A stretch of DNA of 64,000 nucleotides from Alphaproteobacteria bacterium (GTDB taxonomy: Bacteria; Pseudomonadota; Alphaproteobacteria; CAAHEQ01; UBA3637). Of the stretch, positions 4,266 to 57,565 are shown piece by piece. A program made the translations under genes and the position numbers. Below the pieces are notes generated by a model, which saw nothing but the letters and a program-made list of their open reading frames with translations, did no database searches and was not told the origin of the DNA. Where the stretch lies: positions 90,155 through 154,154 of the forward strand of contig JAFPYS010000019.1 in NCBI GenBank assembly GCA_017412085.1, in the 5' to 3' direction. How positions within the stretch are numbered: position 1 is the first letter of the stretch; each line of letters starts with the position of its first letter.

Positions 4266-5054
4266 TCAAGGGCATATTTTGTAATAATTTCCCCAATTTG
4301 GGTGATCGCAAAAATTAGCATGAAATTTCATTTCTTTTAATGTCTTTTCATCTAAAATACCACCAGTAAAATATACTCCGCCAGTGGCCTTTATTGCTAA
4401 AGCGTAATTCATTAAAACGCGTGCAAATTCATTATAAAAAAGCTGGTAAGTTTTACGTGCCATGCGATCTTTTTTTAAACATTTTTCAGCAATTTTAACA
4501 GCAGAAATCGGTGCCTTCCTGTGTGTTAGTTTTTGATATAATTTTTTGAAACCATTACCAGATATCTTTTCTTCAATGGCATGATTATCTGGCAAGACGT
4601 TTTGCCCATATTCCGATGGACACACAACGCCATTCACGATATAACAAGCGCCCAATCCTGTTCCCACATTCATCAAGATCTTTGGAGCTTTATTTGCTTT
4701 TTTGTTATTCAAGGGAACAAGATCTTTTGAAGTCAATGACGATATGGCGGAACCTTGAACTTGTAAATCATTCATTAAGACAACCTGTTTTAGGTTCAAC
4801 TTCGTTTTTAACTTTTTTGCATTTAGTTTCCACGATCTGTTTGTCCATGATACTTCCTCGTTAAATACTGGCCCTGGAACACCTGCTAAGATGAATTTTG
4901 CATCCGGGGCATAGCCGTGTAAAAACGACCCAAACAATAAATATGGATCCTTAAAATCACCGCAGGCAAATTGGTAAATAGCAGATAACCGGCCTTTTTT
5001 AATAAAAGCCAATCGGGCATTGCTTGCTCCCAAGTCGGCCACAATAACGGTCAT
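4266..5054 (-). CDS. glucokinase-family sugar kinase (Glk-like), short form
   Basis: Motifs DLGASNARLAF (compare DVGGTNARLAL), MNDLQVQGSAI, GTGLGACYIV and TGGIL align to E. coli Glk. Start set at the ATG with an AGGAGG RBS at 5054; the upstream extension in the ORF track is ignored. Confidence 0.65.
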   Translation of the reverse strand: MTVIVADLGASNARLAFIKKGRLSAIYQFACGDFKDPYLLFGSFLHGYAPDAKFILAGVPGPVFNEEVSWTNRSWKLNAKKLKTKLNLKQVVLMNDLQVQGSAISSLTSKDLVPLNNKKANKAPKILMNVGTGLGACYIVNGVVCPSEYGQNVLPDNHAIEEKISGNGFKKLYQKLTHRKAPISAVKIAEKCLKKDRMARKTYQLFYNEFARVLMNYALAIKATGGVYFTGGILDEKTLKEMKFHANFCDHPNWGNYYKICP

Positions 5055-5263: not shown

Positions 5264-7464
5264 GATATTTCTCCCAAATGGACATGATGGTCCCGCAGAT
5301 ATGAAGATAAGGCATTACGCAGGGAAGATTGCTTGCTGTTCAATTGGGACATGAGATAGTCACGGTATTTGTCTAAATTTAAGCTCCGAATGGCCGTTTT
5401 TACGGCTACAACAGATTCTGGACTCATAGATAACGTTCTGATACCCAATGCCAATAATGTTAATGCTTCTAATGGACGAGAAGCCATCTCACCACAAACA
5501 GAACATTTTACATGATAAGCATCGCATTGTTCTACAATCAGATTTAATGCTCTTAAAAAAGCAGGGCACAATGAATCGTAACGATTGTTAATTTGCGTAT
5601 TCGTCCTGTCCGCAGCGAACATAAATTGGGCCAGGTCGTTTGTCCCAATGGAAATAAAATCCACTAACGGCAACAAGTTATCCAGTTGGAAAATCAAGGC
5701 TGGCACTTCCAACATTGTGCCCACAATGATTTCTTTAGGCGTTTTTTGTTTGCGCAATATTGCATTTTTTAACTCAATTTCCAACGTCTTCTTGCTTTCA
5801 ATGAATTCTTCAACGGTTGTGATCATTGGGAACATAACCCTTAATGTACTGCCTGCTGTTGCTCGCAAAAGAGCCCGCAATTGATTTCTAAGGAGTGCGC
5901 GCCGGTCTAATGTCATGCGGATCGACCTCCACCCCATGGCTGGATTTTCTTCACCTTGTTGTTCAAAATATGGCAACACCTTATCAGAACCAATATCTAG
6001 TGTCCTGAAAATAACTGGTTTATTTTTGGCCTGAACTAAAACACGCTTGTACGCTTCGGTTTGTGTCCGAATGTCTGGTAAAGACTTTGCAGTCATGAAC
6101 AATAACTCTGTTCTATATAAACCGATACCATCGCAAGGGGGTAAATGATCCACTGCCCCAGACAGCCCCATGTTTAACATAAGCGATACATCCACTCCGT
6201 CTTTTGTTTGTGCGGGTTTGTCTTTATTTTTGGCCTGTAAACGAGCCATGCTTCTTAAGGCTTGTTGATAACTTTTTAACGTATCCAAAGTTTCATCCGA
6301 TGGGCGCAAATAAATCTTACCTTGCACAGCATCCATAGCAACTGGCGCCCCCTCTTCCAATTGGCGCACGGCTTCTTTGACCGCTCCAATCAAGGGAATT
6401 CTGTAAGCGCGAGCCACAATAACAACATGCGTTGTTTGCGAACCATCTTCCAAAACAATACCTTTAATGTGTTTTAAGTCATAATCCAATAACTCTGCTG
6501 CGCCCAAATTGTCGGCCACCAATATTTTATTGCCAATCAGCTTTTTTTTACCACTCTTAGGGATCAGGGCTTGCATTAATCTGGCAGTCAAATCTTGAAA
6601 ATCGCGTGCGCGTTCCCGTAAATATGGATCGGCGACAGCTCTCATCTTTTCCAATGTTTCATCGCCAACTTTCTGCAAAGCCGCCTGTGCGGTAAGTCCG
6701 GTCTTTATTGCAGATTCAACTTTGTTTTTCCATTCGACATCGCTTAAAAACATCAGATAGGTTTCAAACAATTCCTTTTCTTCTGCTGGCGTTGAAGGAT
6801 GAGTCAATCGACGTTGTATTAAACGTTTAACCTTCGAAAACGAAGTGTTTAGACGTTTGATTTCGCGATCCGGATGAATTGTAAGGATTGGGCCGTTAAT
6901 TTCCAACCGTCGGTGTAACAACACCTCGCCCAGCGCAAAACCTTGTATCATTCCTGTTCCCTCTAATGTCCTGGAGACAGAAAGAGACACCAAATTCTTT
7001 GTTGTTTTGCTGCTTGTTAATTCAGCCAAACACTCGGCCAATATCATGGCTACATTTTGAACCGCTTCTACGATTTCGGTGCTAAATGATTCCTTGCGCC
7101 GCGATAATAGGCCAAGCACCGCCAATACTTGATTTCCGCGTACCATAGGAACAACCAAAATGGTCTTGTTGACGCCTTTGGATGAAATAACGGCCTTGCG
7201 ATCCAAAGCGACCCGCCCAACGATTTCTTCCCCAAGTCGAACAAATGTTGGCAATTGGACGGGGCGACCAATTGCAAGGAAGTTTTCCAAAATATCGCCA
7301 GGACGCATAACGTATAAAACAGCCGATGGCATCTTAAGTTGTTCACACAATAACGTGAGAACAGTATTTAACCTTTTGGGGCCAGACATCTCTTTTGCCA
7401 TTACATCACGTAAGGCACTCATCATCGCCGTTACAGAAATAGTTGATCCCTTTGTCGGTGACAT
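5260..7464 (-). CDS. ptsP: phosphoenolpyruvate--protein phosphotransferase EI-Ntr (N-terminal GAF domain plus PEP-utilising enzyme domains)
   Basis: 734 aa. N-terminal GAF-like region, then PEP-utilising enzyme motifs (GGRTSHAAI-like segment LEDGSQTTHVVIVARAYRIP, plus the C-terminal TIM-barrel region). Confidence 0.85.
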   Translation of the reverse strand: MSPTKGSTISVTAMMSALRDVMAKEMSGPKRLNTVLTLLCEQLKMPSAVLYVMRPGDILENFLAIGRPVQLPTFVRLGEEIVGRVALDRKAVISSKGVNKTILVVPMVRGNQVLAVLGLLSRRKESFSTEIVEAVQNVAMILAECLAELTSSKTTKNLVSLSVSRTLEGTGMIQGFALGEVLLHRRLEINGPILTIHPDREIKRLNTSFSKVKRLIQRRLTHPSTPAEEKELFETYLMFLSDVEWKNKVESAIKTGLTAQAALQKVGDETLEKMRAVADPYLRERARDFQDLTARLMQALIPKSGKKKLIGNKILVADNLGAAELLDYDLKHIKGIVLEDGSQTTHVVIVARAYRIPLIGAVKEAVRQLEEGAPVAMDAVQGKIYLRPSDETLDTLKSYQQALRSMARLQAKNKDKPAQTKDGVDVSLMLNMGLSGAVDHLPPCDGIGLYRTELLFMTAKSLPDIRTQTEAYKRVLVQAKNKPVIFRTLDIGSDKVLPYFEQQGEENPAMGWRSIRMTLDRRALLRNQLRALLRATAGSTLRVMFPMITTVEEFIESKKTLEIELKNAILRKQKTPKEIIVGTMLEVPALIFQLDNLLPLVDFISIGTNDLAQFMFAADRTNTQINNRYDSLCPAFLRALNLIVEQCDAYHVKCSVCGEMASRPLEALTLLALGIRTLSMSPESVVAVKTAIRSLNLDKYRDYLMSQLNSKQSSLRNALSSYLRDHHVHLGEIS

Positions 7465-7542
7465 CCCCCTCTCCTTTTATTTTATTTTAGCAGAATCAAA
7501 TTTCAATCGTCAAGATTTTTTTGATAAAAACATAAAAAAGAC

Positions 7543-9473: not shown

Positions 9474-9522
9474 GCTATTTTATCATGATTTCTATCCAAT
9501 TGCAAGTGCAAATGCAAAAAAT

Positions 9523-10677
9523 TTATGTCTTATGGCTATTATTCTTTTTTTTATGATGGATCCAAATGGGAATTCCAAAGAGATATATTTTTTTAATAGT
9601 TCGACGTATATTCCTTTTGATTTTAATGATGGGAATACCAAGGATATAGAGTTTCTTTTTGCGATTACTTTTTATAAATTCATAAAGACGCCAAACAAAA
9701 CGGGGACGTTTTTCCAAATGTTCTATTTTTTGCAATAACAGCATATTTTGTACATTAAGTTTAGCTAGTATTTGATATAAATTGTTTAACTTATCAGTTT
9801 TTTTCTGTAAGTCCCCAACAGATTGTTTAATTTTTTCGAACTCATTTTCTTGCCCTGTCAGACAATTTTGAACTTGCTTATCAAATTTTGTAAAAATAGT
9901 CTTCAGAACAATTCCCAAATCTTCTGGTAAAACATATTTTAACCATAGCTCTGTTAATGGATAAAATACATTATCTAATGGTTTGTGTCCGGCGTAATGA
10001 ATTAAATTTTTATTACGGCTCTCGCTTAATTCAGCATAGTCCTTCCACTCATAAACATTGAAATAGTTCCACCGATAATCAGCATAAATGACATTATCTT
10101 GGCAGACTGCATTAAATATATCCTGTTCAGCATATTTTGTGCTTGGATTTTTTAAACGATGTTCATTCAATTTTACCAATAACTTATCTTGGCGTATTTT
10201 TTTCAAGTTTAATAACATAATACCACAATTAAAATAAAGATTTGGGTTTGTTTTTTTGGTTTCAATATCTTCTTTTTCCACCACTAAATCCGGAACAATT
10301 GCCGCATAATGATTCCCTAGAGTAATATTGTAAAAATCAGCTATATCATCAGTTGCAATTATATCACCATCAAGATATAAAACTTTATCCTCTTTCAATA
10401 AATCAGCAATTATAAATTTAAAATAAACGGCAGAAGTTATATAGGGATGCTTAAAATTCATATCTTTGTAGATGTTTTTTTGTCGCAAGATTATAATTTC
10501 AACATTTTTACTTAAAAATTGTGAAAATTGAGCCACAGAAGTGTCAGATAAATCCACAGCAATAATATAAATCCTTAGTTTTTCTTTTTGGGTTTTGACA
10601 AGAGAATTTATAGCAGTCTTTGTTAACAAGACATAATTTTCATCACAAATAAAACAGATGTTCATTTTATGATCCAT
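9523..10677 (-). CDS. family 8 glycosyltransferase (LPS alpha-galactosyl/glucosyltransferase-like) with a C-terminal coiled-coil and duplicated LGIPI-KIK tail
   Basis: Its N-terminal half carries the GT8 hallmarks ICFICDENY and YLDGDIIATDD (DxD). The last 45 aa read LYILGIPIIKIKRN...IYLFGIPIWIHHKK. Confidence 0.75.
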   Translation of the reverse strand: MDHKMNICFICDENYVLLTKTAINSLVKTQKEKLRIYIIAVDLSDTSVAQFSQFLSKNVEIIILRQKNIYKDMNFKHPYITSAVYFKFIIADLLKEDKVLYLDGDIIATDDIADFYNITLGNHYAAIVPDLVVEKEDIETKKTNPNLYFNCGIMLLNLKKIRQDKLLVKLNEHRLKNPSTKYAEQDIFNAVCQDNVIYADYRWNYFNVYEWKDYAELSESRNKNLIHYAGHKPLDNVFYPLTELWLKYVLPEDLGIVLKTIFTKFDKQVQNCLTGQENEFEKIKQSVGDLQKKTDKLNNLYQILAKLNVQNMLLLQKIEHLEKRPRFVWRLYEFIKSNRKKKLYILGIPIIKIKRNIRRTIKKIYLFGIPIWIHHKKKNNSHKT

Positions 10678-10692
10678 TATCTTTACTCCAAA

Positions 10693-12855
10693 TTAACGAC
10701 AAATCTTTTTTAGTACAGGAATTCCTAAAAAATAGTACCGAATTTTGGTGTGTGATGAATTTGTTTTTATCTTTAAGATAGGAATTCCCAAAACTTTTAT
10801 TTTTGCTTTGTTTTGCTTTCTCTTATAACTGAACAATGGAATCAATCCAAACAGATAGCTTTTCATTTTATTCATCTCCTTCTTTGTTGTTAATAATGTT
10901 TGATGATTTAGATGGTGCTCCAATAATGATGTAAAATATTGTGCAATCCATTCTTGTTTTTCAAGTTTTGCTCCCAACTGAATTGCTTTGTTTAAAGGCA
11001 TTTTTAAGAATGAATAATGAACTAAATTCTGAGCATCCAACGCTGTTAACTGGTGGTATTGACCGTAATTTTGAAAGAGTGCTGTTATCACATCTGCTTT
11101 GACTGCAGCTGTATTCGACGATATCCCTCCCAGTCTATAACAAATAATAAATGGCTCAATCATTGTAATTCGTTTAGCGGCCTGTAACATCTTATACATA
11201 AAGGCTGTGTCAGAAGATACCTTATAATCTAAATCATAAAGTCCTAATTCTTTCATCACATCAGTTTTAATTAAAAATGTTTGATGACAAGCATGCTGAC
11301 CGAAGATCAATGAACGAGTTTGATAACAACTCCACAAACTTTTCACATCCATTGTTTTCTCATCAATAGATTTTGCACTTGCACAACACGCATCTGCATC
11401 TTGTTCTTCAGCCTTTTTCACCAACCATTCTAATCCCCGATCATCACAATAAAAATCATCTGAGTTCAAAACAACCACATATTTCCCCTTGGCCTTTAAA
11501 ATGCCTTTATTAATGGCGTCATACAGCCCCCTATCTGGTTCAGAATAATACGTAATCCACCCCTTTTCTTTATATTCTTTTAAGACATCTAATGTGCCAT
11601 CTTTTGAACCACCATCTATCACAATATGTTCAATATTCTTATACGTTTGATTATGAGCGCTAGTAATACTTTGAATAAAGGTTTTTTCGCGATTTTGTTT
11701 AATTAAATTAAATGTGGGTGTAATAATTGTAACGAGTGGTTTCTGATTTTTACGTTTTTCAACCTCTTCCATTTTATTTAAAATAACATCAACTGTTTTT
11801 TCCCAAGAAAACAGTTTGGAACGTTTCAGACCATTCTGGGCCATTTCATCACGATATTTTTTATCAAAATAATATTTTTCATAGGCTTTTACGTGTTGTT
11901 CGTCACTATCCCAATCGATCATTTGTCCCGCATCACCAACAACTTCCGGTAAACTAGTGTTATTAGATGTAATGACAGGACAACCACAGGCCATAGCCTC
12001 CAAGGGAGGCATACCAAATCCTTCATATTGCGAGGTATAAACAAACCATTCAGCATTGCTGTATAGGACTTCCAAATCTTCATCGTCCACATAACCAGCC
12101 CGAATAATTTTATCTTTATATTTCGAAAAATTTGGAATTTGTTCAGCCCATTTTTCAGCATCTTGCATTACATCTTTACCTGCGATAACATAGACCATAT
12201 TATCAATTTTATTTTGGTCAATAAACTCAAGAAATGTTTTAATACACCGCAGCAAATTTTTTCTGGGATCTAAAGAAGAACAAGAAAAAATAAATTTTTT
12301 ATTCAATGGAATATGATATTTATCTAATATCTTTTTTAATAAGTTTTTATCTTTATTCGGTTTATATGAAAAATTTGCTGCATTTGGAGCAACTATCATA
12401 TTTTTTTCATCGATCTGTGGCCAATACTTTAAAAAATCACGCTTTGTATAACGAGAAACAACAAAATAAAAATCATCCTCTCTGAACGAATTGACTAATT
12501 CACCAAACCAACTATTTGCTCTTCCAAAATAACGGGGCAATAAAAATGGGATGCAATCATGTAAAATAGTGTACCGAGAAATGTGAGGATACTGACGAAT
12601 AAAATCGGGTATTTTATAACTCGGTGATAAAAAAACATCTATTTTTGAAAAATCTCTCCCTTTATAAAAAATGTGATCTTCAGGAAAAGATTTGGTAAGC
12701 ATAGAAAGATCTTTTAGATGAGCTTGTTCTTCAAGATATAGATACAAATTAACGTTCCTTTTTCGAAATTCATTAAATATATTTTGTAAAACGAAAAAAA
12801 TTCCGGAACGACTTCCTAACTTTCCCAACAAACGGACATCCAAGCAAATATTCAT
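10693..12855 (-). CDS. bifunctional glycosyltransferase with N-terminal GT4 (group 1) and C-terminal GT2 domains
   Basis: GT4 motif [33 protein letters not shown], then GT2 motif VTIITPTFN...[11 protein letters not shown]. The C-terminal tail has three LGIPI-type repeats. Its ATG overlaps the stop of the upstream gene (ATGA). Confidence 0.8.
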
Positions 12856-15128
12856 TTTTTATTCCTTTTCCCTAAATTATTAATTAAATATTTTTCCAAT
12901 CGTTCACAAAAACTGGATTTATAATAGAAGAATAAATTTTGCTGTTCCTTCTCCTTAGCAGATAATTGAAAATGATTCTTTGCGTAATAATCTAGAGTTT
13001 TTATGAGGTGTTCTTTATTTTTAATAATATTGGGTAATAAATTCTCTTTGCCTAAATATGGATCAACGACATCCAAAACATGTCCATATTTTTGACAATC
13101 TTCTGCATCGTTAAGCGAATAAAAAAGAACAGGCTTTTCTTGGAAAAAGAATTCAAAACACATTGATGAATAATCCGTTATTAACAAAGATGCTATTTGT
13201 TTTATTTTGAAAATATCATCTTCACCAACTAAATCAATATTCATTTTCTGTAAAACGGGAGACAAAAGATCTGCAACAGAATGATGAAGGGCTATTTTAA
13301 TTTTGATATTATGAACATTCTTCTTAATACAATCCAAAATATCACATATATTCCTTACATATTGACTATCTTTAAGATTTTGAATTTGGGAAAGATAACG
13401 TCTTGTTGTAAAGAAAATAAGAATAAACTTTTCTGATTGCTCCAGTGCAGAATTATGAATACCATCCCAACGCATCAAACCATTTTTGATAATATCTTGA
13501 GTTTTAAAATTCCCTCGTTTAATAAATAATTGTTTTTCCATATCATTAGAAACCAAAACTTTATCAAAGATGTTTTTACCATAAACGTTGGGCATAATGA
13601 AATCCGGTTTAAAAAAAGTAACACCATGTTGCATAAAAATAGAGGTCATATGAGATGTATTTTTAACAATATTATGAAACCCAAAAGGAATAGCTGTAAT
13701 AGCTTGGAAACTATCAAAAACATATCTTAATCTAGGTACTAAAAACAAAAAACACAATTTTAAACGCCATGTTGGAGTAGTCCCAGAATTCCAAAAGATA
13801 ACATGTTTACCATATTTTCGAGCTAATTCTTGACGATATGGTGACTGCGAGTTCAATATGTAATAAGGAACTAATTTCCATTTTTTTTGATCATATAGAT
13901 ATTTAAAAAAAGTAAAATTATCTTGAATGTTGGCATTTGCTTCAAAAATGTTATCCATCAGCAATACAACATTGCGTTTAAACGGAATGCGATTAACGTT
14001 TTTCAAAATCTTTTCAAAAAAGTTAGATTTTTTTCTATTGGGATTATTTAATTTTATTTTTAACAATAAAAGACATCCTAATAAATATATTTTTATTTTA
14101 CCTGGCTTTTCCCTGATTTTAATAATTGGCAAAAAATTAAATAATTTATAGGTGGTTACATCGGAAATTTTTTCAAAATGGGATTGAATACTTTTTTGAT
14201 TAACAATTGCTTTTTCCTCTATCCAATCCAGTATTTTGGTTCTTTCTTTGGACCATTTGGCATAACCAGTTTGGATATATTTTATTGCATTTTCCTGAAT
14301 TTTTCTGATATTCCCCAATTGAATTGGTTGTGGATTTTGGGGATCATACAAATAGCCATTTACACCGTTTGTAATATATTCATTCATTGTTGGATTATTT
14401 GGAGCAATCACACATCTCCCCATAGCCATTGCTTCCAAAAAGCTCATTCCAATCCCTTCGTATAATCTGGGGGCAATATAAATTGCTGATTTCTGTTGTA
14501 TTTGCAACATTTCTTCTTTTGTATTAAACCATTCAGAATAAGTTATCTTCCATTTTGAATCTGGTGAGGGATCCATAAAAGTATGAGCTGGGTCTAAAGC
14601 CTTATGAATATGTAAGCGAGTGATTGAATTTCCCATCAAAAGCTTCTCAATAAGAAGTACGTTTATTGGGGTAATTCTTTGCCAGAAAAAAACAGATTTT
14701 GTATCCCCCATATTACCTATTTTTTGAGAGGGTTCTGGAAAATATTGGATATAGTGTGAAGAAAAACCGAGTTTACTCAATTCTTCATGCAATGTACGGC
14801 TGAAATTAATAATTTGAGTAAAACGATATTCGTACCAAATAGGATTATTCCGACTGGGAATACCATCATACATCGGGAAAAAAACACTTTTTTTAAAGGA
14901 AATAAGTTTTTTTAGTTTCTCTAAAGAAGGCATGATTTGCAACAAGACCAATATATCATATTGTTTTCCTTTCAATGGAGCAAAATGGGAATTTATCTCA
15001 TCCTTATATGGATCAAATGAAAACACATCTACAGTATATTTTTTTTCTAATACAGATAATAAAAATAAATTTGATTTGGTTTTATTGTGATAGGCGTGGC
15101 CAATATACAGTAGCTTTTTCTTTTTCAT
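12852..15128 (-). CDS. GT4 glycosyltransferase fused to a TagF-like CDP-glycerol glycerophosphotransferase domain
   Basis: GT4 motif YEGIGMSFLEAMAMGRCVIAPNNPTMNEYITNG in the N-terminal third. The C-terminal region carries the TagB/TagF hallmark ITDYSSMCFEFFFQEKPVLFY. An internal linker has LPIIKIREK...IYLLGCLLLLKIK motifs. Confidence 0.7.
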   Translation of the reverse strand: MKKKKLLYIGHAYHNKTKSNLFLLSVLEKKYTVDVFSFDPYKDEINSHFAPLKGKQYDILVLLQIMPSLEKLKKLISFKKSVFFPMYDGIPSRNNPIWYEYRFTQIINFSRTLHEELSKLGFSSHYIQYFPEPSQKIGNMGDTKSVFFWQRITPINVLLIEKLLMGNSITRLHIHKALDPAHTFMDPSPDSKWKITYSEWFNTKEEMLQIQQKSAIYIAPRLYEGIGMSFLEAMAMGRCVIAPNNPTMNEYITNGVNGYLYDPQNPQPIQLGNIRKIQENAIKYIQTGYAKWSKERTKILDWIEEKAIVNQKSIQSHFEKISDVTTYKLFNFLPIIKIREKPGKIKIYLLGCLLLLKIKLNNPNRKKSNFFEKILKNVNRIPFKRNVVLLMDNIFEANANIQDNFTFFKYLYDQKKWKLVPYYILNSQSPYRQELARKYGKHVIFWNSGTTPTWRLKLCFLFLVPRLRYVFDSFQAITAIPFGFHNIVKNTSHMTSIFMQHGVTFFKPDFIMPNVYGKNIFDKVLVSNDMEKQLFIKRGNFKTQDIIKNGLMRWDGIHNSALEQSEKFILIFFTTRRYLSQIQNLKDSQYVRNICDILDCIKKNVHNIKIKIALHHSVADLLSPVLQKMNIDLVGEDDIFKIKQIASLLITDYSSMCFEFFFQEKPVLFYSLNDAEDCQKYGHVLDVVDPYLGKENLLPNIIKNKEHLIKTLDYYAKNHFQLSAKEKEQQNLFFYYKSSFCERLEKYLINNLGKRNKK

Positions 15129-15138
15129 TTTTACTCTT

Positions 15139-16317
15139 TTACTTTAAATCGAAAATTTGTTGTGTGGTTTTATCCCAGGTGAATTGTTGCGCGCGCTGGA
15201 GACCTTTTAGCGATAATTCCTGGCGTTTTGAAGGATTACTATATAAATCCCCCATGACATGGGCCATCTTTTTTGCATCTGTTTCTGGCACATATAGTGC
15301 GACATCGCCCCCTACTTCCGGTAAGGAAGAATTGTGGCATGTGATAACAGGCGTACCGCATTGCATCGCCTCTAAGACAGGCAACCCAAAGCCTTCGTAT
15401 AAACTGGGATAAAGAAAAGCAGTTGCTTCAGAATAAAGTGCTGGCATGTCTGAATCAGCAACAAAACCCGTGCAGATAATCTTATTTGCGTATTCAGGAT
15501 AGTTTTGAATTTTTTCTTGTAATTTTTCATAATGACGACCTTTAGGGCCTGCAAAAACCAACGAAATATCCTTTGCTTCTATCTGATTTAAGAATTTTAC
15601 AAATGAATTTAAAATGTGTATAAAATTTTTTCTAGGATTGTGGTCTGAAACCGCCAAAAAATACTTTTGCGTCGGGATATGATATTTTTCTTTAATAGCA
15701 TTTGATTTTGAAGGTTTAAATTTAGAATCAGCTGCTAAATATACCACTTTCGTATTTTTATTGATATAATCGGGTCGAAATTTAAAAAAATCAATCTTTG
15801 TTGCATCAGAAACACAGATAACTTCATCAGCTTTCACTTGTTTAATCCAGGAACGATACTTCTTTACAAAACCAGGAGAACAGGTTTCTGGCATAATCAA
15901 GGGAATTAAATCATGAATAAACATTCTTGTTTTAATCTGGCTTTTATAAATAATTGGAGAAATGGGAGAAAATAAACTAAGGTATTCATCATATTGCCTT
16001 AATTGCTTCATATATTCATGAAAGTATTTTTGAGTCAAAAAATAACAATATGCTTTTTTATAAAGATTATATTTTTGTGTTGTCTTTTTTAGGTACGGCA
16101 TTCTGACAATATTAGGAACCAAATATCCAAGTCCTTTGTCTTCTAAATATTTTACTGGATCGACACCTTTTTTTGTCGTAACAATCGGGTAAACTTCATA
16201 CTCTTTTTGTTTGGAAATACGCTTCAAAACTTCCAAAGAAACACGACAAATCCCCGTCTCTCGCCCCGCACTCATTAATAACTGCTCAATATCATAAAGA
16301 AGCTTGATTTTTTTCAT
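15139..16317 (-). CDS. GT4 (group 1) glycosyltransferase
   Basis: Motif YPSLYEGFGLPVLEAMQCGTPVITCHNSSLPEVGGD. Start set at the ATG at 16317, which overlaps the stop of the cytidylyltransferase gene as ATGA. Confidence 0.8.
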   Translation of the reverse strand: MKKIKLLYDIEQLLMSAGRETGICRVSLEVLKRISKQKEYEVYPIVTTKKGVDPVKYLEDKGLGYLVPNIVRMPYLKKTTQKYNLYKKAYCYFLTQKYFHEYMKQLRQYDEYLSLFSPISPIIYKSQIKTRMFIHDLIPLIMPETCSPGFVKKYRSWIKQVKADEVICVSDATKIDFFKFRPDYINKNTKVVYLAADSKFKPSKSNAIKEKYHIPTQKYFLAVSDHNPRKNFIHILNSFVKFLNQIEAKDISLVFAGPKGRHYEKLQEKIQNYPEYANKIICTGFVADSDMPALYSEATAFLYPSLYEGFGLPVLEAMQCGTPVITCHNSSLPEVGGDVALYVPETDAKKMAHVMGDLYSNPSKRQELSLKGLQRAQQFTWDKTTQQIFDLK

Positions 16318-16748
16318 TGCTGATTCCATTTCTTTAAAATCCAACTAGATGAATTTGCCTTATGAGAACCGCCAATACCAAAGACTTTTTCAACATGACA
16401 TTCTTGACATACATCATCTTCGCGAATGTTCTCTTTTCCTCGATCTCCCCCATTCGCGAATACCAATACATCATGGGGATACATTTGTCGCACTTTACGA
16501 ATTCCATCACTGGCCGAGTTATCTGAATCATCAAAACCTAACGCACAAATAACTCCTTTTAAATTTTCGCAAATTGTTTTTCGTGTATTGAAGTTTTGAA
16601 AAGCTTTTCCCTTCTTACGGATTAACCATTCATCGGAATTAACCAAAACAACTACACCATCACTTGCCTCCGCCGAGGCCTTTATCATTTCAATATGCCC
16701 CTCATGAATGGGATCAAATCCTCCGCTGACAATATAATATTTTGCCAT
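16314..16748 (-). CDS. cytidylyltransferase-fold nucleotidyltransferase (TagD-like or HldE domain II-like)
   Basis: 144 aa with the (H/T)xGH motif SGGFDPIHEGH, and NSDEW...KGK and LVFANGGD segments that align to HldE domain II (FDILHAGH, NSD...KG, LVKGGDY). Confidence 0.7.
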   Translation of the reverse strand: MAKYYIVSGGFDPIHEGHIEMIKASAEASDGVVVLVNSDEWLIRKKGKAFQNFNTRKTICENLKGVICALGFDDSDNSASDGIRKVRQMYPHDVLVFANGGDRGKENIREDDVCQECHVEKVFGIGGSHKANSSSWILKKWNQQ

Positions 16749-16978
16749 TTGTTTTCCCTTTATAGATTCAAATCAAAACACATTATGTTGTGTTTTCTTG
16801 GAGAAGATTAAAACATACATTTTATACTAAGTCAAGAAAAAAATATAATATGAATATAATTTTATGTATTTTAATATGAAATTTCAAAATTATTAAAAAA
16901 TTTCAATGTATTAAAAATATTACCATTCAATTATTCAAAAGAGACTAGGTATAAAAAAGCATACAGTAGTATGTAAAA
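16749..16978 (-). promoter_or_regulatory. AT-rich (~85%) intergenic region, likely the promoter/leader of the glycosyltransferase operon
   Basis: 230 bp with no ORF and multiple TATAAT-like hexamers, immediately upstream of the first gene of a run of five overlapping or tightly spaced genes. Confidence 0.35.
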
Positions 16979-30821: not shown

Positions 30822-32222
30822 ATGCAACCAAAACAACACCCAGGTCATCCTGAACCGGTTTCAGGATCTTATCATAATAAAGAAATTCTGAAACGCGCTG
30901 TGCTTGTTCAGAATGACAGATGCACAGATTCTGGCCGCAGCATGGTGGAAATGCTGGGCATGTTGGCAATTATGGGATTGTTGGGCATTGCAGCGATTTA
31001 TGGCATCCAAATGGCCATGAACAAGACGAAAGCAAATCAAATTATAAAAGATGGACGTTTAGCACATACTTCGTTAATTACAGATCCTATGGCATCGGAG
31101 TCTCCATGGCAAGACGCTGGCTTTACCCCTCTTTCCGATAAAACAATTCAAAAATGTATAAATGCCAACCAGCAACCTCTTGTGAAAGTGCAAGATGTCC
31201 AACCTTCTGTCTGTAAAGAGTTATTACAATACACGGGAATGGGAGAAGTTAAATTTTATAATGCTGTTGCGGGAAACACCTGTTCGGCTAGCGCAAACGA
31301 ACTAACCACCTGTGGTGATCAAAACCAAGATATTGTCATTTTATTTGACGCCAATGGGATGTCTGACGAATCGGGAGACGATACTGGATGCCGAACCGCT
31401 GCCGACTGCGATAACGGGTGGTGTAATAACGGCGAATGTGTGCCCTGCCCGGATTATCAACAGCCCAACGAACAAGGCGATGGCTGTACCGCAAATTGTA
31501 AGCAAGAAACACAAGATCGTTGTGGGATTGGCGAAGGAGACGACGCCATTGATTGGTGTTGTGACAAAGAATTACAGTGTGGTTCAGAACCCGGCACTTG
31601 TTCCGATGGAACATGCAGTTGGGAATTTCATCAGTTCGCGCCCAAAGCGACATGTCAATGGACTTTTGAACAAAAAGCCCCTCATAGCGATTGCACGGTT
31701 ACCTTGACCTATAATGCCGGCGGCACAGAGGTCACGGATGTCACCACAACCGGTTGTGCAGATTCTGGTGAATATTGTTATGTGGCTTATACAGATGCTG
31801 ATTGCGATGCCACAAATCATGCGGTTCAAAATGGTTCCACCGGCACATTACATGGTGTGTGCAACGCCATGACAACGGTAAATACAACCTGTGTGCCAGA
31901 ACTTACTTACACATCGTCAGGTTGCGATACCGCCGGACAATATTGTTATTTGTACTACACAGACCAAGGGTGCAGCACCCCCGCCGGTAATAGTGCAACA
32001 ACGCTTTATGGTGTGTGCCAAGGCATGACAACGGTCAATACAACCTGCGTTCCAGAAATCACCATGGAAGAAAAAACTTATTGCCAATCTGGTGAATATT
32101 GTTATCTGAAATGGGCGACAAATACAGCTTGCACCGAGCTTACGAACGGCGCCAGCGATGTCCTGTATGGCACATGCATCGCCCAAAACGCCGCCTCAGG
32201 CAGCTGCCCGTATAATCATTAA
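30822..32222 (+). CDS. type IV pilin-like (prepilin N-terminal cleavage/methylation motif) secreted protein with three Cys-rich tandem repeats
   Basis: G|RSMVEMLGMLAIMGLLGIAAIYG follows the class III signal pattern (Gly-1, Glu+5, hydrophobic helix). The C-terminal half has three ~55-aa repeats ending in MTTVNTTCVPE and containing GEYCY...LYGVC. Confidence 0.65.
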   Translation: MQPKQHPGHPEPVSGSYHNKEILKRAVLVQNDRCTDSGRSMVEMLGMLAIMGLLGIAAIYGIQMAMNKTKANQIIKDGRLAHTSLITDPMASESPWQDAGFTPLSDKTIQKCINANQQPLVKVQDVQPSVCKELLQYTGMGEVKFYNAVAGNTCSASANELTTCGDQNQDIVILFDANGMSDESGDDTGCRTAADCDNGWCNNGECVPCPDYQQPNEQGDGCTANCKQETQDRCGIGEGDDAIDWCCDKELQCGSEPGTCSDGTCSWEFHQFAPKATCQWTFEQKAPHSDCTVTLTYNAGGTEVTDVTTTGCADSGEYCYVAYTDADCDATNHAVQNGSTGTLHGVCNAMTTVNTTCVPELTYTSSGCDTAGQYCYLYYTDQGCSTPAGNSATTLYGVCQGMTTVNTTCVPEITMEEKTYCQSGEYCYLKWATNTACTELTNGASDVLYGTCIAQNAASGSCPYNH

Positions 32223-32228
32223 GTTAAT

Positions 32229-32657
32229 TTAGTCATGGTTATCAACGCAAATCGCTCTTGCTGTGGCGCTTCGATTTGACCACCAAATACTACAACCAAG
32301 ATCACATCTTCCACCAACTTGAAGTGCCTGAGTGCCATTTTCATTTGCATCCGCCAACCAAATACCCGTAATAGCAGAATAACTGCTGATATTACCACAA
32401 CGAGCTGAATTATTAACAAATGACATACTTCCGCCAGTGCATACGTCTTCATATCTTGCTAAACGCATACCATTGGCGTTACACCATGCAAAAGCGCTCC
32501 ACCAATTCATAAATGAAGCTGAAGATGCAGATGACATACATAAACGTTGTGTTGTATTTACTTTTCCCATATATTCCGTTCCACCGGTACATGTGGCGTG
32601 GGCAAGCGAAGAACAAAGCAAACAAGCCCCCGCAAACAACAATACAGATTTTTTCAT
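32229..32657 (-). CDS. small secreted C-type-lectin-like (CTLD-like) protein, paralog A
   Basis: Signal peptide MKKSVLLFAGACLLCSSLAHA, then ATCTGGTEY, then MNWWSAFAWCNANGMRLA (WxxAxxxCxxxGxxLA of the CTLD) and 6-8 Cys. AGGAGGG RBS. Confidence 0.65.
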   Translation of the reverse strand: MKKSVLLFAGACLLCSSLAHATCTGGTEYMGKVNTTQRLCMSSASSASFMNWWSAFAWCNANGMRLARYEDVCTGGSMSFVNNSARCGNISSYSAITGIWLADANENGTQALQVGGRCDLGCSIWWSNRSATARAICVDNHD

Positions 32658-32702
32658 GAAATCCCTCCTTTTGCGTTGTTTTGACGAAAGAAAAACATGC
32701 AC

Positions 32703-32720
32703 TTTAAACGACCGTTTAAA
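32703..32720. promoter_or_regulatory. 18-bp perfect palindrome TTTAAACGACCGTTTAAA (candidate operator), copy 1
   Basis: Inverted repeat TTTAAACG-AC-CGTTTAAA about 48 nt upstream of the ATG of paralog A. The same element recurs at 33170 and, degenerate, at 33281. Confidence 0.45.
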
Positions 32721-32743
32721 ATGCATGGGGAAAAATGAAAAAA

Positions 32744-33130
32744 TTATTGACTATTTGGAGCGCAAAGAGCTTTTGAGCCTGTCCACACACGATCGGCAGT
32801 TTTGTAGTATGTGTAACTACCGTTTACCTCAATATATGCACGTAACGTTGTTCCAACGGGATCTGCTAAACCTGCAGGATAAGCTGCATTGGCCAATCTG
32901 TGGTAACAATTCAAACTTTCATCGGACTTCATACGACACATTTCCATCCAAGTTGCTAAATGCATACCATTGGCGTTACACCAAGCATGGGCGGACCAGT
33001 AATTCATTGTCTTATTAGATACACAAAATTTTACATTGTTGTTTGTGTACTCAGTTCCGCCTTCACAAGTTGCATGTATTGGGCTTGAAAAGATTAAAAG
33101 CAAGGACATCAGAATAGAAATTTTTTTCAT
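32744..33130 (-). CDS. small secreted C-type-lectin-like protein, paralog B
   Basis: Signal peptide MKKISILMSLLLIFSSPIHA, then TCEGGTEY, then MNYWSAHAWCNANGMHLA. The C-terminal VWTGS...ALCAPNSQ resembles the CTLD WIGL...C end. AGGAG RBS. Confidence 0.65.
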   Translation of the reverse strand: MKKISILMSLLLIFSSPIHATCEGGTEYTNNNVKFCVSNKTMNYWSAHAWCNANGMHLATWMEMCRMKSDESLNCYHRLANAAYPAGLADPVGTTLRAYIEVNGSYTYYKTADRVWTGSKALCAPNSQ

Positions 33131-33169
33131 TTAAAACTCCTTAGATAAGCATTGATTTTAGGCATTTAC

Positions 33170-33187
33170 TTTAAACGACCGTTTAAA
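33170..33187. promoter_or_regulatory. 18-bp palindrome TTTAAACGACCGTTTAAA, copy 2 (upstream of paralog B)
   Basis: An identical 18-mer lies within a 45-nt block (ACTTTAAACGACCGTTTAAAATGCATGGGGAAAAATGAAAAAA) that is duplicated at 32701-32745. Confidence 0.45.
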
Positions 33188-33338
33188 ATGCATGGGGAAA
33201 AATGAAAAAAATAAAAAAACAGATACTTTTTTTATTGACTTACCTGTTTTTTTATTGTATCAAAGTATTAGGCGACAAAAACGGTCGTTTAAAGTGCATG
33301 TTTTTCTTGCGTCAAAACAACGCAAAAGGAGGGATTTC

Positions 33339-33773
33339 ATGAAAAAATTATTTGTCTTAATTGGACTTACTCTTGCGATGTCATCAACTTCCGCCTATGC
33401 AGGCTGTACTGGTGGAACAACGTTTAACACCACCATAAATTCATTAACCCTTTGCAAATCAACCGCTTCTATGAACTGGTGGAGTGCTTTCGCATGGTGT
33501 AAAGCAAACGGCATGCATCTTGCCACTTTTCAAGATGCTTTTGGCGATGCAACTTTAGCCTACAATAGCAATTGTACACTTAGCATAAATAGCAATATGT
33601 ACAACATGTCTGGCATCAATGGATACCCATGGTTGGCCTTGCCCGGAGATGATAATAGCGGAGAAACGGCTTTTGCGGTTTGCGGAGTGTCAACCGGTGG
33701 TTGGCATCGGGTAAACAAATACTCAAGAACTACAGCCAGGCCTGCTCTTTGTGCGCCGAACACAAATAATTAA
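33339..33773 (+). CDS. small secreted C-type-lectin-like protein, paralog C
   Basis: Signal peptide MKKLFVLIGLTLAMSSTSAYA, then GCTGGTTF, then MNWWSAFAWCKANGMHLA. WLALPGDDNSGETAFAVCG...ALCAPN resembles the CTLD WIGL.D...EDCV...C end. Its 5' leader (33281-33338) is about 95% identical to the paralog A leader. Confidence 0.65.
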   Translation: MKKLFVLIGLTLAMSSTSAYAGCTGGTTFNTTINSLTLCKSTASMNWWSAFAWCKANGMHLATFQDAFGDATLAYNSNCTLSINSNMYNMSGINGYPWLALPGDDNSGETAFAVCGVSTGGWHRVNKYSRTTARPALCAPNTNN

Positions 33774-57052: not shown

Positions 57053-57565
57053 TTAATATTTTATACCTATACATAAAACATCTGGCACTTCATCCGTACA
57101 ATCCGTCTTGCTTTTCTTGCATTTTCCACCTGAATATTCGTATATACCTACAACTTCACCCTTAGCATAATGCTTTTTCTCCTCTTGCACACGCTTCATT
57201 AAAGCCTTGCACACTGACGCATCCAAAGCCTTTCCACCATTAACATTTCCCACAGGAACAGCAACATAACCAAGCGCCGCCTCACGCTTGACACCGGTAT
57301 TGTTATCGCCCACACCGTAGCCATAAGACGTTATAGCAGAAGCTCCACCAGCCTGTTTATCAAAAACACCATAAGTCAATTTACTAGACTTCTTTTCTGC
57401 AACCAATGCACGTTTACGTACCTCATCCAACAAATTGTTTAATCGCACTTGAGATGTCGCATCTCCAAAAAAGGCCATACCACCAACGGTCAAAAGTCCT
57501 ATGAGCGCCAAAACACCAAGCATTTCCAATAGCGTACGCCCACTATTTTTTTCCATTCGTTGCAT
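57053..57565 (-). CDS. type IV pilin-like protein (prepilin-type N-terminal cleavage/methylation domain)
   Basis: MQRMEKNSG|RTLLEMLGVLALIGLLTVGGMAFF, with Gly-1, Arg+1, Glu+5 and a hydrophobic helix. The C-terminal pair of Cys (C...C) is typical of a pilin disulfide loop. Confidence 0.6.
   Translation of the reverse strand: MQRMEKNSGRTLLEMLGVLALIGLLTVGGMAFFGDATSQVRLNNLLDEVRKRALVAEKKSSKLTYGVFDKQAGGASAITSYGYGVGDNNTGVKREAALGYVAVPVGNVNGGKALDASVCKALMKRVQEEKKHYAKGEVVGIYEYSGGKCKKSKTDCTDEVPDVLCIGIKY

Follow-up and report, generated by a model that had tools for sequence, protein, structure and literature searches.

A pilin-associated family of minimal C-type-lectin-like proteins in uncultured gut Alphaproteobacteria, with retroelement targets in related loci and three fixed paralogs in the window

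Results

Genes at the locus

The 64,000-nucleotide stretch of DNA analyzed here (the window), taken from contig JAFPYS010000019.1 of an Alphaproteobacteria bacterium, carries near its center three small genes, designated A, B and C, which encode exported proteins with a predicted C-type-lectin-like domain (CTLD) and lie next to a gene for a pilin-like protein (Table 1). The open reading frames (ORFs) of the cluster were found as given in the original prediction, which was made from the sequence alone and described three paralogous genes of 128-144 aa, two on the minus strand and one divergent on the plus strand. The product of gene A was identical to database protein P0023, that of gene B corresponded to P0018, which is the same protein with a later start called, and that of gene C was 100% identical to a protein of a metagenome-assembled genome (MAG) entered as 'MAG: Alphaproteobacteria bacterium', locus tag II938_04270. 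Paralogy rather than chance similarity was indicated by the matches of a single family profile to A, B and C at E values of 1e-27 to 1e-32 (1.2e-27 for A and 1e-31 for B).

The signal peptide and shared N-terminal motifs that had been predicted for all three proteins were present. Thus, each protein began with an MKK n-region, a hydrophobic core of 12-15 residues and an A/I-x-A cleavage motif typical of a Sec signal, with predicted cleavage at AHA↓TC in A, IHA↓TC in B and AYA↓GC in C, and the mature sequences shared the motifs C-x-GGT, (F/L)C-x-S, MN(W/Y)WSA(F/H)AWC(N/K)ANGM(H/R)LA and A(L/I)C-x-x-N. Pairwise identity was 37-39% overall, 60-62% in the mature N-terminal half and 21-28% in the C-terminal half, in keeping with the earlier description of a divergent C-terminal half. 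The proteins were also considered as lipoproteins and this reading was rejected, as neither H-A-T-C (A and B) nor Y-A-G-C (C) conforms to the lipobox [LVI][ASTVI][GAS]C, the residue at position -3 being H or Y. Across the family, the first cysteine was found 1-4 residues past the AxA site. From this variable offset and the lack of a lipobox, A, B and C are likely to be cleaved by signal peptidase I. None of the three proteins had any Pfam match at E<=1 and none had a usable NCBIfam match.

Beyond the cluster and the pilin-like gene, the locus was flanked by aspS, a homolog of a tRNA U5-methyltransferase gene and suf genes, and nothing resembling secretion or pilus machinery was noted nearby.

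Table 1. Coordinates, strand and description of features in the window
Feature	Position	Strand	Description
Pilin-like partner gene	30822-32222	plus	466 aa, Cys-rich, directly upstream of cluster; true start codon uncertain
Repeats in partner gene	31764-32108		Three repeats of ~156-168 nt
Gene A	32229-32657	minus	142 aa from conserved MKK start; secreted protein with predicted CTLD fold; 8 Cys in mature part
Gene B	32744-33130	minus	128 aa; secreted protein with predicted CTLD fold; canonical 6-Cys pattern
Gene C	33339-33773	plus	144 aa; secreted protein with predicted CTLD fold; ortholog at same locus in related strains
Strain-specific segment	32228-33390		~1.16 kb; A, B, intergenic repeats, new 5' end and signal peptide for C
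70-nt inverted repeat, left arm	32648-32717		Last 60 nt before gene A and first 10 nt of its coding sequence
70-nt inverted repeat, right arm	33279-33348		Last 60 nt before gene C and first 10 nt of its coding sequence
51-nt direct repeat	32696-32746 and 33163-33213		Second copy upstream of B, with degenerate palindrome copy
32-nt palindrome	32696-32727	minus	14-bp stem, 4-nt loop, then U-run; between B stop and A start
Ghost 5' gene ends	32727-32748 and 33194-33213	plus	GGGGAAAAATGAAAAAAT...; opposite strand to A and B
Low-GC island	~9500-16750	minus	GC content 29-35% versus about 40%
Second pilin-like gene	57053-57565	minus	170 aa, G↓RTLLEMLGVLALIGLL; just upstream of mreB-mreC-mreD-PBP2-rodA

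Predicted fold

An AlphaFold2 model of the gene C product, computed from an alignment of 147 family members (pLDDT 83.2, pTM 0.77), contained two helices and two antiparallel sheets in the order beta-beta-alpha-beta-short alpha followed by five strands, and superposed on solved CTLDs. The original prediction had recognized a CTLD signature and had named a Foldseek comparison of an AlphaFold model with CTLD structures as a means of checking it; that comparison returned the CTLD fold, and the same picture had been obtained with an earlier, shallower model. Structural matches included CD72, natural killer (NK) cell receptors and Link modules, and the closest bacterial structure was Bd2740. The top matches of the family profile among PDB sequences were likewise CTLDs, at sub-threshold E values (0.048 for DEC-205 and 0.11 for mosGCTL-6), and the alignments with PDB CTLDs placed (F)C.S...NWWSA..WC.ANGMHLA on the beta1-alpha1-beta2 signature.

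Six cysteine positions were kept throughout the 147 members in the arrangement of long-form CTLDs, with a predicted pair in the N-terminal hairpin, another that links alpha1 to the last strand, and a third. Thus, C23, C39 and C54 were invariant, C138 was at least 90% conserved, and the same level of conservation (at least 90%) was noted for C68 and C79, the third predicted pair. These positions fit helix alpha1 (residues 47-56) and the last strand (residues 134-140) of the model, the pairing itself being predicted. W47/W48/W53 and W98 were also at least 90% conserved, and W-[TL]-A-[TL] was found at the WIGL position of CTLDs, where gene B has GLAD. Together, the model, the Foldseek and PDB profile matches and the conserved cysteines support the CTLD assignment at the level of fold. 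At the level of Pfam models, A, B and C did not reach the gathering thresholds of Lectin_C (PF00059), Xlink (PF00193) or Lcl_C/DUF1566 (PF07603). Among the 147 members, matches to Xlink (14), Lectin_C (11) and Lcl_C (3) were all sub-threshold, and the sole sequence to pass was P0120, a three-domain relative, which scored 30.8 bits against the Xlink (PF00193) gathering score of 27 bits.

The EPN/QPD and WND motifs associated with Ca and sugar binding were not seen on reading A, B, C and the family consensus, for which no dedicated motif scan was run, and the long loop region was short. These features suggest a compact CTLD that is probably Ca-independent and is not demonstrably a lectin. Classical Ca-dependent, glycan-binding C-type lectins would also have a CTLD fold, and this identity would agree with the weak Lectin_C profile matches in 11 of the 147 members and with a gut habitat, but the motif and loop findings, as well as the nature of the best structural matches, make it highly improbable. 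CD72, NK-cell receptors and Link modules include Ca-independent binders of proteins or polymers. In addition, Bd2740 has lost Ca binding, and the C-type-lectin (CLec)-fold protein Mtd, a variable protein of a diversity-generating retroelement (DGR), binds the protein pertactin on the host-cell surface (PMC10769870). Accordingly, the host glycan binding suggested in the original prediction was unsupported. Its premise that compact CTLDs are rare in bacteria was also the wrong background, as CLec-fold domains are the standard DGR target (PMC11661182, PMC11601372).

Size and distribution of the family

An exhaustive profile search recovered 633 clusters (50% identity) at E<=1e-3 and 263 at E<=1e-10, compared with only 16 relatives from a word-indexed search. 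Nearly all members were 115-145 aa in length with a signal peptide, and every named source was a MAG of an uncultured gut alphaproteobacterium. In agreement with this, all 54 genomic loci recovered from one genome per species were from uncultured 'Alphaproteobacteria bacterium' MAGs of animal or human gut. The paralog expansion that had been proposed from A, B and C extended to the family, with 13, 8 and 8 family loci in three genomes, and many family loci were located at the ends of contigs, which is to be expected when a gene family is repetitive. A phage origin was considered and rejected. Thus, a search of IMG/VR gave one weak match only, which indicates that the family is cellular, and a viral structure library returned only weak matches to CTLDs of eukaryotic viruses. 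The family is uncurated, with no Pfam or NCBIfam model, and its range so far is confined to uncultured gut Alphaproteobacteria.

Association with pilin-like proteins

The partner gene upstream of the cluster had no usable Pfam or NCBIfam match, and its resemblance to type IV pilins was indicated by its N-terminus. A class III signal motif, G↓RSMVEMLG, begins at position 30933 (G↓RSMVEMLGMLAIMGLLGIAAIYG) and shows the expected pattern, with G at -1, E at +5 and, after these, a hydrophobic stretch of about 20 residues. In an alignment of 24 pilin-like N-termini, G, R and E were invariant, and a profile of these 24 sequences, unlike a single pilin-like N-terminus, which had no match among PDB sequences, matched type IV pilins of the PDB (PilA, geopilin, CofA, TcpA and PilE) at E 5e-5, with G aligned at -1 and E at +5. 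The C-terminus of the partner protein consists of three Cys repeats of about 52-56 aa each. At the DNA level these repeats encode 'SGEYCY..YTD..C....LYGVC..MTTVNTTCVPE', and similar tandem repeats of 174 nt were noted in the pilin-like genes of loci L005 and L007. The Cys-rich repeat module could be a docking site for the CTLD proteins.

Linkage between pilin-like and CTLD genes was assessed for the 38 family genes with at least 1.2 kb of upstream DNA, against a background of 33 pilin-like ORFs in 522 kb. A pilin-like ORF on the same strand ended immediately upstream of 12 of these 38 genes and was present within 1.5 kb of 22. A pilin-like homolog was also located upstream of a family member in L001. 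On three contigs from related strains (L059, L060 and L061; 77% nucleotide identity), an ortholog of the partner gene was followed after 20 nt, which included a Shine-Dalgarno sequence, by an ortholog of gene C, and then by genes for a tRNA U5-methyltransferase, a helix-turn-helix protein and an FeS-assembly protein and by a gene that aligned to an ORF of the suf region of the window.

Fusions of the two kinds of protein were noted as well. P0145 combines one CTLD with a pilin N-terminus and a Cys-rich region and shares 39% identity over 348 aa with a pilin-like protein of the stand-alone type. P0064 contains a pilin N-terminus and two CTLDs. No DGR was found in the genomic contexts of these two fusions. 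P0120, the three-domain relative, has three CTLDs with Cys-rich linkers between them. Operon linkage and fusion are the classical signature of proteins that work together. In a further protein, P0017 (262 aa), the first ~110 residues of a mature pilin-like protein are followed directly by a CTLD, with the join at the signal-peptide junction; P0017 may be a deletion recombinant or a chimera.

Diversity-generating retroelements in related loci

Inspection of neighboring genes revealed two recurring ORFs, of ~440 aa and ~128 aa, in five family loci (L005, L007, L023, L034 and L038). The larger was a reverse transcriptase (RT), with Pfam RVT_1 scores of 56-68 bits against a cut-off of 29.6, and the smaller was Avd-like, with a bAvd score of 38 bits, just below the cut-off of 40, and a match to NCBIfam DivGenRetAVD at E 2e-12. 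The final ~100 nt of the CTLD gene recurred between the Avd and RT genes as a template repeat. Mismatches between template and gene were almost confined to template adenines, at which 16 of 17 were located in L007, 11 of 11 in L034, 9 of 10 in L038 and 14 of 15, plus one indel, in L005 (binomial P from 1e-4 to 7e-7). In these four loci the variable region was the last 25-36 codons of the CTLD gene. The template encodes Asn at the variable sites, reading SSAYNVNLNNGNVNTNTRTNNNNALCY where the gene reads SSAYNVGLNSGYVYPGTRTLNYSALCY, and its register agrees with that of a DUF1566-type template (AFNFNFNNGNANNNNKTNTYSVRAV). The cassette order was pilin-like gene, Avd, template repeat and RT, with the CTLD target alongside. 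When mapped onto the model of C, the variable region corresponded to the last three strands and their loops, where A, B and C differ most. Judged by these sequence features, the elements of L007, L034, L038 and L005 are textbook DGRs with family members as their variable proteins.

Paralogs elsewhere in two of these genomes also resembled the templates. Mismatches of L006 with the L007 template were at adenines in 16 of 20 cases and those of L036 with the L005 template in 15 of 20, which suggests that paralogs such as L006 may be additional or former DGR targets.

Several other features were noted in or near these elements. In L027, a template-like repeat (4304-4387 and 6360-6429) shares 86% identity with the L038 template and forms a pair with the 3' end of the CTLD gene at that locus, 9 of the 15 mismatches being at A sites; the 6.7 kb of sequence available for L027 yielded no RT. 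In L005, the interval that separates the DGR target from the convergent RT gene contains four tandem copies (6604-7540) of a ~200-nt unit that has hairpins within it, and a fifth, partial copy was found at 11585-11667. In L038, direct and inverted copies of a palindromic element (...GTCATCCTTGCGAAAGCGAGGATCC...) surround the DGR target gene (5651-5886, 6712-6818 and 7166-7331); one inverted pair of 56 nt is 100% identical, and the element looks like a repetitive extragenic palindrome or a miniature inverted-repeat transposable element. The 512-aa database protein P0251 proved to be an RT ORF that runs through a translated DUF1566-type template repeat, a gene-calling artifact that exposes the template.

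Genes A, B and C are not diversified from within the window

None of the marks of a DGR target, i.e., a template repeat, a nearby RT or Avd gene, or (examined for C) hypervariability between strains, was found for A, B and C within the window. Searches of the 64 kb by tblastn with the RT and Avd of L007 gave best E values of 0.26 and 1.3, respectively, and a template repeat was found neither by blastn with the four template repeats nor by a repeat search. On inspection, the 3' ends of A, B and C showed no pattern of NNC/NNT codons, and they differed in length from one another and from the four templates. When C was compared with its L059 ortholog (77% nucleotide identity), the 31 codons from 109 to 139, which are equivalent to the variable region, differed by four synonymous and five conservative changes. 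With no RT, Avd or template in the window and normal drift of C, diversity at this locus appears to be hard-wired in the form of three paralogs, and the window genes are not being diversified by a DGR element in the window.

Diversification in trans, with A, B and/or C as active variable proteins of a retroelement elsewhere in the genome, was also weighed. In its favor, family members are targets of DGRs in the four related loci, paralogs at L006 and L036 match templates with mainly A-site mismatches in two of those genomes, and all three genomes with many paralogs carry a DGR. The lack of RT, Avd and template repeat across 64 kb, the length and codon pattern of the 3' ends and the unremarkable changes between C and its ortholog argue the other way, and no RT of this MAG was present among the named RT homologs, most matches carrying no name. 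Diversification in trans is thus considered very unlikely.

Repeats and a strain-specific segment around genes A and B

Comparison with L059, L060 and L061 indicated that homology ends just past the stop codon of the pilin-like gene (32227) and resumes at 33391, which defines the strain-specific segment of Table 1. We propose that A and B arrived with a 1.16-kb recombinational insertion between the pilin-like gene and C.

The segment is rich in repeats. The arms of the 70-nt inverted repeat were 99% identical and enclose a 561-nt piece that carries B, and a 22-nt box was present in five copies in 32696-33300 where none was expected. The palindrome between B and A had a predicted RNA folding energy of -30.8 kcal/mol (z -5.3), and only its 3' half was present before C. 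The original prediction had inferred a shared regulatory module from such elements. The shared upstream repeats (70 nt, 51 nt and the 22-nt box) are real, but the 18-nt core of the box was not found in 63 of the 64 fetched loci, the exception being L062 from the same species, and its absence from other family loci indicates that it is not a family-wide regulator. A scan for sigma-70 promoters detected none in the A/B/C intergenic regions, the total found being that expected by chance. The species-specific set of palindrome and repeats looks like a local repeat, a recombination scar or a terminator/attenuator.

Two ghost 5' gene ends within the segment (Table 1) share 14 identical nt with the beginning of gene C, and there is an overlap between one of them and the B stop codon. 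They have the appearance of relics from earlier duplication or inversion events.

L062, a contig of 552 nt (ENA ERZ28654120), encodes P0012, which consists of the N-terminal half of A and the C-terminal half of B. The first and last 55 nt of this contig are identical, such that it describes a cycle of 497 nt, equal to the distance between the conserved boxes in genes A and B. Either the assembly graph formed a loop here or the contig represents a real recombinant, tandem or circular, and the chimera was therefore downgraded as proof of recombination.

The layout of the segment raised the question of a shufflon-like switch in which inversion between the 70-nt repeats flips the 561-nt segment with B, changes which paralog is behind a promoter or the terminator hairpin and so brings about phase or antigenic variation of the binding head. 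In line with such a switch, the arms stop sharply at coding nucleotide +10 and head genes that are only ~38% identical, which suggests that recombination was recent or is continuing; only the A side has, ahead of the gene, a strong hairpin with a U-run; the 5' gene end 'ATGAAAAAATTATT' recurs as ghost copies within the segment; and contig L062 joins the halves of A and B. Against it, no recombinase gene adjoins the segment, whose flanks are the aspS, tRNA U5-methyltransferase and suf genes already mentioned; no sequence in the flipped orientation was found, the junctions being informative only in reads that span a whole 70-nt arm; an exact search of JGI metagenomes for the inverted-repeat arm gave 0 matches; L062 may represent an assembly-graph cycle with the same 55 nt at both ends and a period of 497 nt; and no sigma-70-like promoter was detected in the segment. 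Thus, the layout would allow inversion and no evidence was found of inversion happening. The switch, which would be compatible with the role proposed below for A, B and C, is regarded as quite unlikely.

Discussion

Proposed role of the CTLD proteins

The findings are best accounted for, in our estimation with somewhat better than even probability, if A, B and C are exported, disulfide-stabilized binding modules of CLec fold that act as alternative heads for the pilin-like stalk encoded upstream, and belong to a family that is diversified by DGRs elsewhere. Each mature protein, of about 100-120 aa, would be exported by Sec and would fold, probably with three disulfides, into a compact Ca-independent domain. 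The conserved N-terminal half would provide the scaffold, comprising a beta-hairpin with a Cys pair, helix alpha1 with the invariant WC and the 'HLAT' strand. The divergent C-terminal half, from the W-x-A strand through the last three strands and their loops to the invariant C-terminal Cys, would form the ligand-binding face. The pilin-like protein would then serve as a membrane- or filament-anchored stalk on which the small proteins may dock as adhesin or receptor-recognition modules, and surface display, adhesion and ligand binding are expected of the assembled product. In sister genomes the predicted binding face of family members is rewritten by a DGR, and in this window diversity would be kept as three fixed paralogs.

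Alternatively, A, B and C could be free in the periplasm or secreted and act independently of the pilin-like protein, for example as secretion substrates, inter-bacterial effectors or periplasmic binding proteins. This view agrees with the ordinary Sec signal and lack of an anchor, and with the many family genes that have no pilin-like neighbor. A precedent exists in two DGR variable proteins of Bacteroides, which are related to pilus tip adhesins and strictly periplasmic (PMC11601372). This alternative is nevertheless thought unlikely in view of the operon linkage, with gaps of 20 nt or smaller and a frequency far above background, the independent fusions to pilin-like proteins and the consistent nesting of the DGR cassette between pilin-like gene and CTLD gene.

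A number of observations weigh against a stalk-and-head arrangement. The pilin-like N-terminus scored below the Pfam N_methyl threshold, an immediate pilin-like neighbor was present for about one third of family genes and one within 1.5 kb for just over half, and many family genes were in unrelated housekeeping contexts. At the locus itself, A and B are on the strand opposite to the pilin-like gene. A scan of 20 ORFs, which together span roughly 5.3-20 kb and 44-60 kb of the window, found no genes for a pilus, a type II secretion system or a prepilin peptidase. The binding half was the less confident part of the model of C, with pLDDT 64-72 for residues 71-90.

The two runs of ORFs that were scanned contained housekeeping genes (mreBCD-PBP2-rodA, mfd, trkA and dus) and a low-GC cluster of glycosyltransferase genes. 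The latter island encodes GT8 and GT4/GT2-fusion glycosyltransferases, a CDP-glycerol glycerophosphotransferase-like protein and a cytidylyltransferase, with an ABC exporter adjoining, and is probably a horizontally acquired cluster for surface polysaccharide or a teichoic-acid-like polymer. The second pilin-like gene of the window had weak NCBIfam matches to models of a prepilin-peptidase-dependent protein and of GspH, and no CTLD gene adjoined it.

Comparison with known systems

The closest parallels in fold and diversification are the CLec-type variable proteins of known DGRs, such as Mtd of Bordetella phage, TvpA of Treponema and the DUF1566/Lcl_C targets, which belong to the same fold class as A, B and C. 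In these as in the present family, the variable region covers the strands and loops of the C-terminus and extends to just short of the stop codon, and the relatives described here have a template that encodes Asn at the variable sites, an RT and an Avd. In contrast, the window genes lack RT, Avd and template and give no sign of mutagenic homing. Members of the family also differ in being stand-alone domains of ~100-120 aa with three Cys pairs rather than C-terminal domains of large proteins, in ending with A-L-C rather than V-R-C-V-R, and in failing the Lcl_C and Lectin_C thresholds.

Of the structures matched, Bd2740 of Bdellovibrio bacteriovorus (PDB 8oks) has a C-terminal domain that forms the tip of a mosaic adhesive trimer fiber and is without a Ca site (PMC10769870). 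There the domain is a covalent part of a trimeric fiber protein with an S74 chaperone, whereas A, B and C are separate gene products, some relatives of which are fused to a pilin-like protein. CD72, NK-cell receptors and Link modules (LYVE-1, Xlink) are only 9-17% identical to A, B and C and have their third Cys pair elsewhere. Unlike these eukaryotic CTLDs, A, B and C are bacterial, have a signal peptide only and score below Pfam thresholds.

Among pilus systems, the tip adhesins of Bacteroides resemble the present family in that they are from gut bacteria and place CLec modules beside genes for pilus stalk and anchor, some being diversified by DGRs and others static (PMC11601372). The Bacteroides system belongs to another phylum and is built of type V lipoprotein pilins, whereas the signals here are of class III, as in type IV pilins, and the binding module is a separate small protein. 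Two precedents bear on the linkage of a binding module to a pilin. In the modular pilins PilB and PilC of S. sanguinis, a functional module is grafted on the pilin for display (PMC8179133), and in enterotoxigenic Escherichia coli the small Sec-exported protein CofJ is encoded with, and binds, the large minor pilin CofB (PMC6048534). The former resembles the fused relatives P0145 and P0064, and the latter the proposed split arrangement of A, B and C as heads and the pilin-like protein as stalk. The V. cholerae proteins TcpF and TcpB are a further pair of secreted partner and tip minor pilin. Neither in sequence nor in fold are A, B and C related to vWA, the ConA-like lectin, CofJ or TcpF, and they differ from PilB/PilC and CofJ-CofB in that no pilus operon surrounds them and that the interaction is here deduced from linkage and fusion.

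Thus, variable binding proteins of CLec fold are already a known kind, and what is new is a minimal, pilin-associated family of them, uncurated and including DGR targets, which is represented in the window by three fixed paralogs. A more far-reaching possibility is an undescribed two-part adhesin, composed of a Cys-rich pilin-like stalk and separately exported CLec heads, in which diversity arises through a DGR or through an invertible or recombining cassette of paralogs that switches heads by means of the 70-nt repeats; we regard this as decidedly doubtful.

Significance

The family joins themes that are usually studied apart, namely type-IV-pilin-like filaments, minimal C-type-lectin folds and DGRs. 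The presence of both hypermutated and fixed members offers a natural comparison of 'somatic' and 'germ-line' diversification of one binding scaffold. With about 100 residues and probably three disulfides, the domain ranks with the smaller CLec scaffolds for which tolerance of DGR variation has been shown, and it is of possible interest for protein engineering. For annotation, 'hypothetical proteins' of the A, B and C type can now be named, and the gene upstream of them is to be read as a pilin-like partner. In the biology of uncultured gut Alphaproteobacteria, the CTLD family is probably a major part of surface recognition, whether of host mucus or cells, protists, other bacteria or phage.

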